Part shown: positions 37,643-56,723 of the stretch, piece after piece
Layout of the letters: each line of letters starts with the position of its first letter
Position numbering within the stretch: position 1 is the stretch's first letter
DNA from: Alphaproteobacteria bacterium
GTDB taxonomy: Bacteria; Pseudomonadota; Alphaproteobacteria; RF32; CAG-239
Direction: 5' to 3'
DNA length: 64,000 nt
Assembly (NCBI GenBank): GCA_017444525.1
Contig: JAFSWL010000022.1
Location: forward strand, 6,646-70,645
Notes under the pieces: model-generated
Databases searched by the model: none
Seen by the model: the letters and a program-made list of their open reading frames with translations, nothing else
What the model was told of the DNA's origin: nothing
Program-made: the position numbers and the translations under genes

Positions 37643-39331
37643 TTATTGCACCCTGACTACACTGCAGAAAACTCCGTTACGTCCTAACTGACTGCAGACG
37701 GAATCACCGCTATCCAAACTCTTTATAGGCCCTACACGCAGATGGAATAGCTCTTTTCCTTGTCCATCTGCCGGTGTATCAACCGAATAGAACGGCTCAT
37801 ATCCACTCAATAATGAGGAATAGCGACCAGACAAATCCTGCCATAAAGCTTCCAAATTATTGACATTGGAATCCGTCCCCAATTCTATCGATAAACTGTC
37901 TGAGGTTTGTCCCTCAAAACCGCTGCCATACTTATATTGCGGGAAATTCTTGCCGATAACGGCACCATCTGCGGTTTTCAATTGCGACATACCGCTGTAA
38001 TCCATATCTCCTGCACATCCATTATTCGGGGCACAAACCGCTCCCATAAGACCATTCATTGAGCTGTTTGAACCGCTGATAGCACCGTTAGGAACATAAA
38101 CACCCCCGCCGGAATTATTTCCGAAACCAGTTCTACCGTCAGTCCCGCTGCTCCCCTTATCTGTACCGGATGCAGCACTTGATGTACTGCTGACTGCTCC
38201 AGCTCCCATACCGGCAGAGCTGCTTCCACCGCTTTGCGAGCCTTGTCCCGGTATTGCCGGAGCAATATCCCACTCATTACTGGTGTCGGCATAGCTTACA
38301 TATTGTGTTCCTTCATCATCAGATCTACGCATCTTTAAGCAAACCATACGCTTACCGCTACGCATAACCATATCGCCTACACCCTCAACGATAATCAATC
38401 TGTTATTTGGTCCTTTGGTTCTAAATCCGACCGGAGTTTCCGAACGTTCGATAATCATCGTCACAATTGGACGCTGTACCATATTTATTGCTTTTTCACC
38501 TAAATCAATATATGTAAATATATCATCATGCCATACACGTTCCGGTGCAATAATCACGTCATCTGGATTAGGTACATAAATTTCAATATCAAAACGAAAC
38601 TTTGACGGATCCATAGGAATACTCTTTAACCAATCTTCTTTTAAGAAGCGACGGGTGAATGTGGCATCAACCGTTTTATCCATTCCAGCCCCGAATCCAG
38701 CAGCGTTTACATGGCCACTGCTACCGCCGGCTATCTCACCGCCGCTCCTGGGACTACCTCCCGATGCGCCGTTTTTACCGACAACATCAATATCTATGAT
38801 GGAGTTTGTTATTCTTTCGGTATTAATACCTTCACTTCTGGCGTAAAATACATATTTATTTCCGGAACGTCCGAGAACGATGACATTAGTATCATTTCCG
38901 ACGGTTGCTCCCGGTTGCGGATATAACATCACGGTATTAGGCGGCATAATCTGCCCCGTAAAAGTACCGGTATCACCGACAAACACATGTTCAACCAACT
39001 CCCATTCCGGAAAATTAATCATTGTAATCATACCTTCACGCAATCTGACCGGCAATACCAGATCAGGTGTCCAATAATATTTAGAATAAGCCGGCTTACT
39101 TTGCCCCTCACCCAAATTCTGTAACGGATCCTGCCATGCTTCCTGAAACATTCCGATAGAACCGAAACCGGCATATCCGAGATTCATTGATTGATAGTTT
39201 CCCTGCGACTGATCCGCCGATTGATCATAACTACTGTTGCTATTATCATCGGTAACCAAACCGGCAGCATAAAGATTGTGCGTAAACAGCATTCCAATCA
39301 TTAATACCAATGTTTTAAAGCTCATTCTCAT
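37643..39331 (-). CDS. virB9: VirB9/CagX-family protein with Gly/Ser-rich linkers and C-terminal SPOR-like domain
   Basis: 562 aa with a signal peptide. VirB9 N-domain-like block (LVLPVRLREGMITMINFP...VIVLGRSGNKYVFYARS) and C-domain-like block (PERVWHDDIFTYIDLG...MVCLKMR). The last 84 aa (nt 37646-37897) resemble SPOR. Confidence 0.8.
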   Translation of the reverse strand: MRMSFKTLVLMIGMLFTHNLYAAGLVTDDNSNSSYDQSADQSQGNYQSMNLGYAGFGSIGMFQEAWQDPLQNLGEGQSKPAYSKYYWTPDLVLPVRLREGMITMINFPEWELVEHVFVGDTGTFTGQIMPPNTVMLYPQPGATVGNDTNVIVLGRSGNKYVFYARSEGINTERITNSIIDIDVVGKNGASGGSPRSGGEIAGGSSGHVNAAGFGAGMDKTVDATFTRRFLKEDWLKSIPMDPSKFRFDIEIYVPNPDDVIIAPERVWHDDIFTYIDLGEKAINMVQRPIVTMIIERSETPVGFRTKGPNNRLIIVEGVGDMVMRSGKRMVCLKMRRSDDEGTQYVSYADTSNEWDIAPAIPGQGSQSGGSSSAGMGAGAVSSTSSAASGTDKGSSGTDGRTGFGNNSGGGVYVPNGAISGSNSSMNGLMGAVCAPNNGCAGDMDYSGMSQLKTADGAVIGKNFPQYKYGSGFEGQTSDSLSIELGTDSNVNNLEALWQDLSGRYSSLLSGYEPFYSVDTPADGQGKELFHLRVGPIKSLDSGDSVCSQLGRNGVFCSVVRVQ

Positions 39332-39346
39332 TTCTTTATCCTAACT

Positions 39347-40099
39347 TTATTCTCTGATTTGTTTGGTTGTATAAGACAGAACCGTAAATCCTACCGGATT
39401 TTTCAGTCTCTCTTTATAAGAAACTCTCTGCGGCACATATTGTACACGCAAACTAGCACGATATTTCAGTTTTTTAGGCGTGTATGATGTCGGCAAATAG
39501 TAATCGGCGCTGTATTCAACCTGCCAATATGATTCGGAAATCTCATTGACGGTAATAATCGAAACATTACTGGTTAAACCGTCTTCTTTCATTCGCTTCA
39601 TCAACTTCGGAGCCGTATTGCTCATAAAATCCTGATAAACAATCGGAGATGACATTTTTTGTAAATCTCCGCCGTTTTGCCAACGTGCCTCCATTTCTTC
39701 AACATCGGAAAGCAACGTTGTTCTTAATAATACATATTGGCGAATAAAAGTCTCGGTTATTGATTTTTTAGCTTCCATATCCCGACTGTACGGAATTATA
39801 TTGTATACTTGCTCATCTTTGCCGGCCAGTGTCAATAAATAAGGTTCTACTCGATATAACGGCAAAATATTGGCAATCGTCAACAACAAAATCAAATTGC
39901 AACACAAGCTTATAGCCGTAACCACCGCAAAAGCGCGAGCCGTCCATAAATATCTTTTTTCGCTTGCATTGACAACCAAATTATCTTCATCTTGCTCTAT
40001 CTCGCGTCTTACGTTCGTACGAGCATTTTGAACCGAACGTTTTTGTCCGGAAGCTATCAAACGTTGCTGTGTGTTATTTACTCCTAACTGAGCTGCCAT
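39347..40099 (-). CDS. virB8: VirB8 family protein (paralog 1)
   Basis: 250 aa, bitopic (TM AFAVVTAISLCCNLILLLTIANIL), with FIRQYVLLRTT and the C-terminal NPVGFTVLSY motif typical of VirB8. Confidence 0.85.
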   Translation of the reverse strand: MAAQLGVNNTQQRLIASGQKRSVQNARTNVRREIEQDEDNLVVNASEKRYLWTARAFAVVTAISLCCNLILLLTIANILPLYRVEPYLLTLAGKDEQVYNIIPYSRDMEAKKSITETFIRQYVLLRTTLLSDVEEMEARWQNGGDLQKMSSPIVYQDFMSNTAPKLMKRMKEDGLTSNVSIITVNEISESYWQVEYSADYYLPTSYTPKKLKYRASLRVQYVPQRVSYKERLKNPVGFTVLSYTTKQIRE

Positions 40100-40114: not shown

Positions 40115-40303
40115 TTAAATCGTTTCCCAAAACCAATCCGGCACATTTTTAATCACGTCAAGTTGCATGCAAGCGCACGGCGACAACTTGAGCTCGTTGA
40201 CATCTTTACCGATACCGACGGCTTCCGGTTCATAATACGAACCAAACAAACTGCATGCCGACAGAACTAAAAATATAGCAAAAATCAAAAGTTTTTTATA
40301 CAT
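40115..40303 (-). CDS. small lipoprotein, VirB7-like by position
   Basis: 62 aa with signal peptide and lipobox LSAC. Located between two virB8 paralogs and upstream of virB9. Assigned by size, lipobox and position only. Confidence 0.5.
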   Translation of the reverse strand: MYKKLLIFAIFLVLSACSLFGSYYEPEAVGIGKDVNELKLSPCACMQLDVIKNVPDWFWETI

Positions 40304-50374: not shown

Positions 50375-51163
50375 TTATTGATACGTAGGTGTCTGAGTTC
50401 CGGCAGGCTGCTTTTGCTGCTCCAATTTTTGTTCCAATTTTTGCTGTCCTGATGCCGCAATATCTTCTATCGTATCTGCAGCCATCTTATCGATTATGTT
50501 ACCGACATCATCTCCGGAAACCGCAGCTTTTGCGGCATTTTGCACGCCTGAACGATTTTTCTTGAGCCAATTAAACACTTGTGCTTTGTATTTTTGATGT
50601 TTTACGCTGTTGTTTTGTTGTGAAGATGCATTATTCTCCGTACCTGAACCGGAAGCCGCTCCCAAAGATGTACCGGAAGAACCGTCGCCGGCGGCATTGG
50701 CTTTGTCCTCTTCTTCCCATGCTTTATCTTCTTGCTGTTCTTTCAGCTCTTCATCAAGTTTTTTTTGCAAATATTCTCTACCCTTGCGTTTTTGTTCGGC
50801 AACAAATTCTTGTGATTGGGTTTCGACAGTTTTTTCACCGGCAGCATATACCGTTCCGAACGGATCATCTCCGAAACGTCCCCAATTCATATTATTTATA
50901 AATTTATTAAACATTTTATTATACGTCGATCGTACTTCCGGACTGTTGCCGCGTTCGGCATTTTCTTCTACCAGCTTGCGATTGTTATGTGCTTTTGTAC
51001 TTTGATTTTTTTCAATGGTACTCAAAGTCCATGAGCGCATATAGTCGGCCATATATGTTTTAAAAAATATCGGAATGCCCTGTGCTTTGGCATTGCATGC
51101 ACAGAGAGTTATCGCCACAACAAGGACAACCGTTTGAATTATTTTTTGCGCTTTTCCAGTCAT
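50375..51163 (-). CDS. secreted protein or lipoprotein (262 aa), possible paralog of the adjacent 234-aa protein
   Basis: Signal peptide with possible lipobox (ITLCAC). Has a central K/E coil and a C-terminal FNWLKKN...GNIIDKMAAD block. Confidence 0.6.
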   Translation of the reverse strand: MTGKAQKIIQTVVLVVAITLCACNAKAQGIPIFFKTYMADYMRSWTLSTIEKNQSTKAHNNRKLVEENAERGNSPEVRSTYNKMFNKFINNMNWGRFGDDPFGTVYAAGEKTVETQSQEFVAEQKRKGREYLQKKLDEELKEQQEDKAWEEEDKANAAGDGSSGTSLGAASGSGTENNASSQQNNSVKHQKYKAQVFNWLKKNRSGVQNAAKAAVSGDDVGNIIDKMAADTIEDIAASGQQKLEQKLEQQKQPAGTQTPTYQ

Positions 51164-55179: not shown

Positions 55180-55563
55180 CTAACTTTTATTTACTTGCAC
55201 TTTAGTGGCGTCCCCCGGCACACTACCGGCTTCGGAACCCGAGCTGTCATATTTCAGTTCAGGAATGCTTTTTCCTCCCTCGGCAACATAGTTAACGGCC
55301 GCAAACATAATACTGAGCAAAAAGCAGCTCAACATAATATATGCCAGATTTTTCCACGATATTTTGTTAAAAATGGCCATAACAGAAAATACAACCAAGC
55401 CCATTCCGGCAATCATATATCCGCTGTTGCGCAGCCCTAAACCGATAGTGGTGGCTTTATCGGCCAATTGCACAAATATATCGCTGTCGGCAAAGGCATC
55501 GGAAACGCCACCGCAAACCACTAAGAAAAGTAAAGCAAAAAAACGCATCTGCAACATTTTCAT
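55180..55563 (-). CDS. virB2: VirB2/TrbC-type pilin (paralog 1)
   Basis: Long signal peptide plus two hydrophobic helices separated by a short loop (MIAGMGLVVFSVMAIFNKISWKNLAYIMLSCFLL). The start could be ATG 55557. Confidence 0.7.
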   Translation of the reverse strand: MKMLQMRFFALLFLVVCGGVSDAFADSDIFVQLADKATTIGLGLRNSGYMIAGMGLVVFSVMAIFNKISWKNLAYIMLSCFLLSIMFAAVNYVAEGGKSIPELKYDSSGSEAGSVPGDATKVQVNKS

Positions 55564-55566
55564 CTC

Positions 55567-55923
55567 CTAACCGTTACCATTCATATTGGCTTCCATGTCC
55601 ATTTCAGAACCGGTGGCGAGTGCACCCACCTGCTCGGCAAAAGCAATAACAAAAACTCCGAGCATGATTGCAATCAGCCACTTCCAGTTAAAACTGCCAA
55701 ACATACCACCGATGCAAACACTGGCTATACCGATGGTAGCCGCCGGATAAATAACCTTGCGTAAACCGGAGAACATCGTTTTACCTGATGTAATCAAAGC
55801 GCTGAAGGTGCCGGTATCGCCGGTAGCGGCAAGTGCTTCCGTTGTATACAAAAATAAAGAAAGCACCATAGCTATCGTATAGCGGTTTTTATAAAGAAAT
55901 TCCTTTATTTTTCTGTACAACAT
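55567..55923 (-). CDS. virB2: VirB2/TrbC-type pilin (paralog 2)
   Basis: Same architecture (ATIGIASVCIGGMFGSFNWKWLIAIMLGVFVIAF). Start placed at ATG 55923 after AGGAGG; the ORF-track start at 55941 is a TTG. Confidence 0.7.
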   Translation of the reverse strand: MLYRKIKEFLYKNRYTIAMVLSLFLYTTEALAATGDTGTFSALITSGKTMFSGLRKVIYPAATIGIASVCIGGMFGSFNWKWLIAIMLGVFVIAFAEQVGALATGSEMDMEANMNGNG

Positions 55924-55946
55924 AACTCCTCCTTTCTTCAACCTGA

Positions 55947-55970
55947 GGGAGAAAGAAAATTCTCTCTCCC
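55947..55970 (-). promoter_or_regulatory. stem-loop immediately downstream of the first-transcribed pilin gene
   Basis: GGGAGAAAG (55947-55955) / CTCTCTCCC (55962-55970), 9-bp stem with one mismatch and no T-tract. Possible attenuator or mRNA-stabilising element. Confidence 0.35.
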
Positions 55971-56003
55971 TTGCGATTGAATTATACTTTTGGCAGCAAT
56001 ATA

Positions 56004-56345
56004 TTACAATGAGTCGTCGTAGTTAGTACTGGTAACTGTGCCACCGTCGTTGGAAGAAACCGCATAGTCAACAACTTTACCGGCTGCAGCCACAACTGCC
56101 AAACCCAGAGCCAAAGCGGCAAACCATGCCCATTTCAGTTTGCCGAAAATAGCTTGGAAGGCTAGTGCCACCAAACCAAAACCGCCGATTACGAACAAAA
56201 CACTTTTCGTATCCTTAAACAACTTAGATAATTTACTGATAGCGGTATCGAACACCGTAGCTGCCGAAGCATCACCTATCATAGCCACTGAAAAAATAAA
56301 AGTCATTGCCAAGATGGTGCAAATATTATTTTTCAAGAATTTCAT
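56004..56345 (-). CDS. virB2: VirB2/TrbC-type pilin (paralog 3, promoter-proximal)
   Basis: 113 aa from ATG 56345 (MKFLKNN). Signal peptide ending DASA, then FVIGGFGLVALAFQAIFGKLKWAWFAALALGLAVVAAA. The ORF-track start is 56390. Confidence 0.7.
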   Translation of the reverse strand: MKFLKNNICTILAMTFIFSVAMIGDASAATVFDTAISKLSKLFKDTKSVLFVIGGFGLVALAFQAIFGKLKWAWFAALALGLAVVAAAGKVVDYAVSSNDGGTVTSTNYDDSL

Positions 56346-56723
56346 GTTTTTTCTCCTATTTCTATTATCCACACTTTTATAATAACACACTTTTTTTCAA
56401 AATCGTACAAGTTTTTTATGAATTTTTTGTTACAATCTTTAAGTCGGCAATCGACCTTTATTCTGCATCTGCATCATGTGTGTATTATAAATATACATCG
56501 TTATGATATTCTATATTTGTAAATAAATCGTAAAGACTGATTTTTATAAACCAATGCCGTCATTTGCGATTTTATTTAGCTCTGATAAACAGCTTTGCTG
56601 AAATTTTTTGTGTGTTGCCATTCTCGCGCAGATGATAACATTGCTCATCTCCATGCGTCATTGCGGCAAAATAATGCTAATTATTATTTATTTTGCGCAT
56701 TAACTGTATTTTAACGTTATTTG

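Follow-up and report, generated by a model that had tools for sequence, protein, structure and literature searches.

In this work, we analyzed the gene that occupies positions 37643-39331 of a 64,000-nucleotide stretch (the window) of contig JAFSWL010000022.1, which belongs to the genome of an uncultured rumen alphaproteobacterium; all features described below lie on the minus strand and are numbered by the window. In one uninterrupted open reading frame (ORF) of 562 amino acids (aa), this gene encodes a VirB9 subunit of a type IV secretion system (T4SS) to which a C-terminal domain of SPOR family and SPOR fold is almost certainly fused (aa 479-562, positions 37646-37897), and we refer to the product as VirB9-SPOR. 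Both families are known and their combination is new: a literature search found no paper pairing SPOR with VirB9, TrbG or CagX, in agreement with an earlier note on this DNA, made from the sequence alone, whose author knew of no description of such a fusion. The residues that line the glycan groove in classical SPOR domains are altered in this one, and its most likely function, to which we give about an even chance, is to tether the secretion machine to the cell wall, or to position it there, by means of multiple copies of the domain with a modified, Glu-bearing (E-type) groove.

The assignment of the tail is supported by profile, sequence and structure comparisons. The earlier note had placed it behind the VirB9 C-domain and a long Gly/Ser linker, and positions 37646-37897 do translate exactly into the 84 aa that it quoted. 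Searched alone against the Pfam SPOR profile (PF05036), these 84 aa scored 26.9 bits (E 6e-6, gathering cut-off 21), and the full-length protein gave a marginal 21.2 bits. When 1.84 billion representative proteins were searched by phmmer with the last 95 aa, 219 matched at E <= 1e-3, about 30 of which are VirB9-like proteins that share the tail at 35-94% identity; beyond these, the search reached proteins with two or three repeats, at whole-library E values of 3e-12 to 1e-5, and eight of the ten sampled were bona fide SPOR proteins by Pfam (1e-18 to 1e-34). An alignment of 33 tail sequences served as the basis of an AlphaFold2 (AF2) model of the tail and of the column counts given below. The model reached a predicted local distance difference test (pLDDT) score of 86.9, with values of 89-96 for the same domain within the full-length model, and has the topology beta-alpha-beta-beta-alpha-beta, with beta1 at aa 479-487, alpha1 at 490-508, beta2 at 512-518, beta3 at 528-536, alpha2 at 539-551 and beta4 at 557-561 (E9-17, H20-38, E42-48, E58-66, H69-81 and E87-91 in the numbering of the tail model). 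When this model was compared with the PDB by Foldseek, the SPOR domain of Pseudomonas aeruginosa RlpA ranked first and third (6i09 and 6i05; TM score 0.78, root-mean-square deviation 2.3-2.4 Å), that of Bacillus subtilis CwlC second (1x60) and that of Escherichia coli DedD fifth (6ztg), so that the profile match and the fold similarity proposed as checks by the earlier note were both obtained. The SPOR fold is an RNP-like one, in which two helices pack against a four-stranded antiparallel sheet. The paired Cys to which the earlier note drew attention corresponds to C546 and C556, invariant in VirB9-type tails and kept in 250-252 of 253 related non-VirB9 SPOR domains; the pair is therefore characteristic of the SPOR subfamily that gave rise to the tail, and probably forms a stabilising disulfide. 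By sequence, neither the single tail nor the 33-member profile matched any SPOR structure among the PDB chains, and the tail is therefore a divergent member of the family. Membership in the secretin-N0 or ring-building-motif families was also considered and ruled out, as both the sequence relationships and the closest solved folds point to SPOR. A six-frame profile search of the window detected no second SPOR-like domain.

The rest of the protein has the layout of a VirB9 subunit. It matched the Pfam CagX profile (PF03524) with 44.1 bits (cut-off 34.2, E 2.8e-11), aa 83-333 aligning to profile positions 4-196 of 198, and it scored 30.2 bits against the NCBIfam VirB9 equivalog TIGR02781; since this value is far under the cut-off of 217.7, the sequence reads as that of a divergent VirB9 and not of a close orthologue of Agrobacterium VirB9. 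The first 23 residues (MRMSFKTLVLMIGMLFTHNLYAA; 39263-39331) form a putative signal peptide, with a hydrophobic core followed by YAA and a presumed cleavage, and are the least conserved region of the protein (23% identity). An N-terminal beta-sandwich at aa 81-183 (38783-39091), inside the CagX match, was modelled as beta strands with pLDDT 84-93 in the full-length AF2 prediction; a Gly-rich insert at aa 187-245 was predicted with low confidence; and the C-terminal VirB9 domain at aa 246-335 (38327-38596), also inside the CagX match, consists of beta strands with pLDDT of about 50-72. Between the signal peptide and the N-domain, we observed in addition an N-terminal extension of about 60 aa (aa 24-82, 39085-39262), conserved at 71% identity among near homologues and with G60, Q63, W66 and P69 invariant, which was modelled with low confidence and has no family match.

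The C-terminal VirB9 domain is followed by a Gly/Ser/Ala/Asn-rich segment at aa 340-478 (37898-38314), with pLDDT 32-50, almost without secondary structure and with 28 Gly and 23 Ser among 133 residues. In the full-length model, N-domain, C-domain and SPOR domain are folded, and the last two are parted by about 135 aa (aa 340-473) with pLDDT below 50, as expected from the linker described in the earlier note. Across 119 near homologues, identity to the window protein averaged 0.90 for the C-domain (aa 229-345), 0.88 for the SPOR domain, 0.70 for the N-domain and 0.28 for the linking segment, which is between 65 and 200 aa long in the homologues. Selection thus acts on the SPOR tail as strongly as on the VirB9 C-domain, and the segment that precedes it is predicted to be a disordered leash, unconstrained in sequence, that carries a folded SPOR domain; this layout matches the description of classical SPOR proteins (PMC6895207). 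As a separate observation, a 260-nucleotide contig from a sheep-gut metatranscriptome maps to 38052-38311, within this linker, with 4 mismatches (about 98.5% identical), a weak hint that the gene of a close relative is transcribed in vivo, and too little to claim expression.

The architecture is widespread. Full-length searches found more than 1500 homologous proteins at E <= 1e-3; the best 120 of them are full-length proteins with 61-78% identity, all of which have the tail. More distant VirB9 homologues, with tail identities of 35-52%, combine CagX with the same tail; nine such proteins were found, seven of them with weak SPOR matches. When relatives of the tail were searched with a tighter tail alignment in GTDB representatives, at one genome per species, 259 stretches encoded them; the best 80 of these 259 loci all come from rumen, gut or faecal metagenome-assembled genomes, nearly all labelled Alphaproteobacteria or uncultured proteobacterium and a handful with other phylum labels. 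The 57 loci that are 12 kb or longer all share the gene set around VirB9-SPOR; 54 of them have the order VirB8b, lipoprotein, VirB8a, VirB9-SPOR, VirB10, and neighbouring matches are swapped in the other three. Altogether, both the fusion and its place in the operon are fixed in hundreds of species of gut and rumen Alphaproteobacteria. The VirB9-type tails group as one clade (support 0.87) in a domain tree, consistent with a single old fusion; short non-VirB9 proteins whose SPOR-like tails are of acidic type are the sister group, and the tree, which does not resolve the deeper branches, points to no donor family.

The altered groove becomes apparent when the tail is compared with SPOR domains crystallized with their ligand. 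In the RlpA-glycan structures, few side chains contact the glycan, namely Gln270 on beta1, the basic patch formed by R302, R309 and R311 on beta2 and beta3, and Phe274, and most contacts are made by main-chain atoms (PMC6895207). Gln270 is the only highly conserved contact side chain; the Gln hydrogen-bonds the lactyl carboxylate of N-acetylmuramic acid (NAM) and the N-acetyl group of N-acetylglucosamine, the basic patch receives the NAM carboxylate, and F274 stacks on the glycan (PMC6895207), at a position where an aromatic residue is preferred, not universal. In the Pfam register of the hidden Markov model (HMM), G485 of VirB9-SPOR occupies position 10, which sets Glu483 (codon GAA, 37883-37885) at position 8, that of the glycan-contact Gln (RlpA Q270, FtsN Q251, DamX Q351), and Asp487 at position 12, that of the aromatic. 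The I-x-L-G pattern to which the earlier note appealed is present in beta1, and what it missed is that the x is this very Gln position and is a Glu here. We compared the columns of the 33 VirB9-type tails with those of the 253 related non-VirB9 SPOR domains, aligned to the family profile. At position 8, the VirB9-type tails have E in 31 cases and Q in one, against Q in 140 and E in 17 of the 173 aligned related domains; at position 12, they have D (18), N (6), G (4) or H (2), against F (69) or Y (51) among 185. On beta3, His530-Leu531-Arg532 (37736-37744) falls in the R-x-R-x-G-P register and aligns by sequence with RlpA R309/R311; Arg532 is invariant in the 33 tails and position 530 is H in 19 and R in 13, and the same sequence-based mapping gave no clear equivalent of R302. 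Because Glu replaces the glycan-contact Gln, position 12 is without an aromatic and Arg532 is invariant, the groove is probably non-canonical, and it is unlikely that the domain simply binds denuded glycan in the usual manner. What stands of the module described as peptidoglycan-binding in the earlier note is hence its SPOR family and fold, its fusion and its conservation; that it binds peptidoglycan does not follow safely, given the Glu found at position 8 in 31 of the 33 tails and the Asp, Asn or Gly at position 12.

These substitutions are not confined to VirB9. In fifteen two-SPOR proteins of 390-480 aa, the N-terminal domain is of the E-type and lacks the position-12 aromatic, beside a second SPOR domain; these N-terminal domains read [FY]Y[VI]E[LI]G and usually have Gln at the position equivalent to Arg532. 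The presence of such domains in ordinary two-SPOR proteins argues that E-type domains are functional variants and not decayed ones, and that a Glu does not make a domain dead; it also fits a second specificity better than decay. A more daring proposal, which we regard as distinctly improbable, is that the VirB9 tail represents a separate E-type class of SPOR specificity, in which a Glu paired with an invariant Arg would replace the Gln, the aromatic clamp being absent, and which would recognize a mark on the wall to which classical SPOR domains do not bind (e.g. de-N-acetylated, positively charged or otherwise locally edited glycan), about 14 readers per machine placing a T4SS devoid of VirB1 at a particular site, for example the new pole, and holding it there.

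The function that we favor follows from where the tail would sit. In the solved core complexes of P-type T4SSs (pKM101 TraN/O/F and R388), about 14 copies of the VirB9 C-domain make up the outer shell of the O-layer, just beneath the outer membrane. Because of this location and copy number, some 14 tails would hang into the periplasm as a multi-copy fringe, the disordered leash of 65-200 residues would be long enough for the SPOR-type domains to reach the peptidoglycan layer, and the tails may thereby tether or position the machine on the wall. There are precedents for wall-binding parts that position envelope machines, in DotK (PMC10266036) and in the AMIN domains of PilQ (PMC5285504). Several points weigh against this interpretation. 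The carboxylate of Glu483 should repel the lactyl carboxylate of NAM; the FtsN Q251E substitution lowers both denuded-glycan binding and septal localisation about two-fold (PMC6895207); the aromatic equivalent to RlpA F274 is replaced by Asp, Asn, Gly or His; the PDB searches by sequence retrieved no SPOR structure; and the geometry, both the 14 copies and the reach to the wall, is an extrapolation from other T4SSs.

The earlier note also suggested that the tail could replace the wall interface usually provided by VirB1, having stated that no VirB1-type lytic transglycosylase is encoded in the locus. The latter statement held: a Pfam scan of ORFs of 120 aa or longer, covering the T4SS locus and most of the window, gave no SLT/VirB1 match, the entire 64 kb contain no GLMQ-encoding motif, and the two small exported proteins encoded after VirB4, searched for a hidden VirB1, gave no informative matches to PDB sequences. 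As an enzyme, the tail cannot take the place of VirB1, because SPOR is a binding module without lytic activity. It could stand in only indirectly, if the machine were installed where the wall is already open, which is the model proposed for the AMIN domains of PilQ (PMC5285504), and our confidence that the tail replaces VirB1 is low.

The wall-tether function was weighed against three other explanations. One is that the tail is no domain at all, either because a low-complexity C-terminus resembles the SPOR motif by chance or because an artefact of annotation or assembly has joined a separate gene to virB9; the marginal full-length Pfam score and the lack of PDB sequence matches would speak for it, and we regard it as refuted by the single uninterrupted ORF, by the recurrence of the architecture among full-length homologues (more than 100, from independent assemblies) and at 57 loci that keep the gene order, by the confident fold resembling solved SPOR domains and by the strong sequence links to true SPOR proteins. 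A second explanation takes the domain at face value: the tail would act as a canonical septal targeting module that binds denuded glycan at the division site, so that VirB9 and the core complex would already be in place at mid-cell and pass to the new poles, with no need for a dedicated VirB1; this is the most favourable version of what the earlier note proposed. Fold and homology agree with this, as do the mostly backbone-mediated glycan contacts, the partly kept basic patch and the fact that Q251E in FtsN cuts localisation only about two-fold. Moreover, SLT/VirB1 was not found in the window, although its absence covers these 64 kb only, the AMIN domains of PilQ do the same for type IVa pili without dedicated hydrolases (PMC5285504), and the Dot/Icm system is assembled at mid-cell and anchored by DotK (PMC10266036). 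However, the change from Gln to Glu together with the loss of the aromatic is near-fixed in the family and is more suggestive of selection for another kind of groove than of drift, which makes septal targeting of the ordinary kind unlikely in our opinion.

The third explanation dispenses with the wall. The SPOR fold may have been re-used as a protein-binding or ring-building module, either as a self-associating collar or as a dock on the split VirB10 or another periplasmic T4SS part. The replacement of glycan-contact residues by acidic ones is compatible with this, and the very strong conservation of the whole domain (88%), including the beta2-beta3 loop PADGQGKE, would suit a protein interface; besides, SPOR-SPOR self-interaction has been proposed for FtsN, and the locus has unusual large periplasmic T4SS parts in need of partners. 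On the other hand, an unconserved tether varying from 65 to 200 aa suits the search for a distant and extended target such as the wall better than a fixed interface, and the invariant Arg532 with His/Arg530 keeps the sugar-acid-binding register; we therefore hold a purely protein-binding role to be rather doubtful. Taking together the tether function and canonical septal targeting, the tail is predicted, with fair to good probability, to bind the wall in one way or another.

VirB9-SPOR belongs to a chromosomal, divergent P-type T4SS, the locus of which has yidC and housekeeping genes in its vicinity. The locus comprises three VirB2-like pilins, VirB4, six unannotated exported proteins, two VirB8 paralogues, a 62-aa lipoprotein, VirB9-SPOR, a split giant VirB10, VirB11 and an autotransporter. 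The three tandem VirB2/TrbC-like pilin genes (55180-56390; Pfam TrbC 9e-9, 5e-9 and 2e-3) stand at the head of the locus. Directly upstream of virB9-SPOR lies one of the virB8 paralogues (39347-40099; Pfam VirB8 7.4e-22), preceded by the lipoprotein gene (40115-40303), which is flanked by both paralogues; its product has the lipobox LSAC and no family match, and its place is conserved in the 57 related loci. By position and size, this lipoprotein is likely the equivalent of VirB7. Directly downstream, the stop codon of virB9-SPOR (37643-37645) abuts the start of the next gene at 37642, that of the split VirB10 (29241-37642), made of an N-half (33401-37642) and a C-half (29241-33398); the C-half contains the TrbI domain (Pfam TrbI 5.5e-32) and beta-flower repeats occur in both halves.

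Two further genes of the window deserve mention in their own right. Within the T4SS operon, a 262-aa exported protein of unknown family (50375-51163) shows a weak PDB sequence match of its residues 126-174 to colicin E5 chains (E 0.035), which may be due to chance; the operon thus possibly contains a nuclease-toxin-like piece. Elsewhere, a 753-aa ORF (7404-9665) contains a HepT-like ribonuclease domain at about aa 446-505 (Pfam 3.7e-7) and is unusually large for a HepT toxin.

To our knowledge, the relation of the P-type T4SS core to peptidoglycan is poorly understood, be it how the core passes through the wall, whether it is anchored there or what sets its location. If our interpretation is true, a domain of wall-binding type on VirB9 would be without precedent among core subunits of the VirB type. 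In addition, the tail is a compact, expressible probe of 90 aa, and its natural change from Gln to Glu in the groove lends itself readily to asking whether ligand specificity varies among SPOR domains.

Compared with known systems, the tail shares with the SPOR domains of RlpA, FtsN, DamX, DedD and CwlC the beta-alpha-beta-beta-alpha-beta topology, a length of about 80 aa, a profile score above the gathering threshold, the x-L-G motif of beta1, the Trp of alpha1, the R-x-R-x-G-P motif on beta3 and the disordered low-complexity linker, and its nearest sequence relatives are multi-SPOR proteins with the Cys pair. It differs from canonical SPOR domains in the Glu that takes the place of the glycan-contact Gln, in the Asp or Asn in place of the position-12 aromatic, in a longer and conserved beta2-beta3 loop, and in its partner, which is a subunit of a secretion machine and not a divisome protein, an amidase or a lytic transglycosylase. 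The protein as a whole resembles canonical VirB9/TrbG/TraO/TrwF/CagX in its signal peptide, its two beta-rich domains, the location of its gene between virB8 and virB10 and the small lipoprotein gene nearby, whereas it is about twice as long and has the conserved 60-aa N-terminal extension and a C-terminal extension of about 220 aa made of tether and SPOR domain. Two machines offer functional parallels. In the Legionella Dot/Icm system, DotK, a component of the outer-membrane core complex, binds peptidoglycan and is required for the machine to stay at the poles (PMC10266036), which resembles the wall binding and placement of a T4SS core that we infer for VirB9-SPOR; DotK, however, is a separate lipoprotein of OmpA-like fold from a type IVB system, and its binding was demonstrated by experiment. 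In the type IVa pili of P. aeruginosa and Myxococcus xanthus, the AMIN domains of PilQ recruit the machine to the division site, so that a dedicated wall hydrolase is not needed (PMC5285504; PMC10653833). Here too, a domain of peptidoglycan-binding type is fused to a multimeric outer-membrane subunit, as in VirB9-SPOR, but the subunit is a secretin, the fold is that of AMIN, the domain is N-terminal and its role has been established experimentally.

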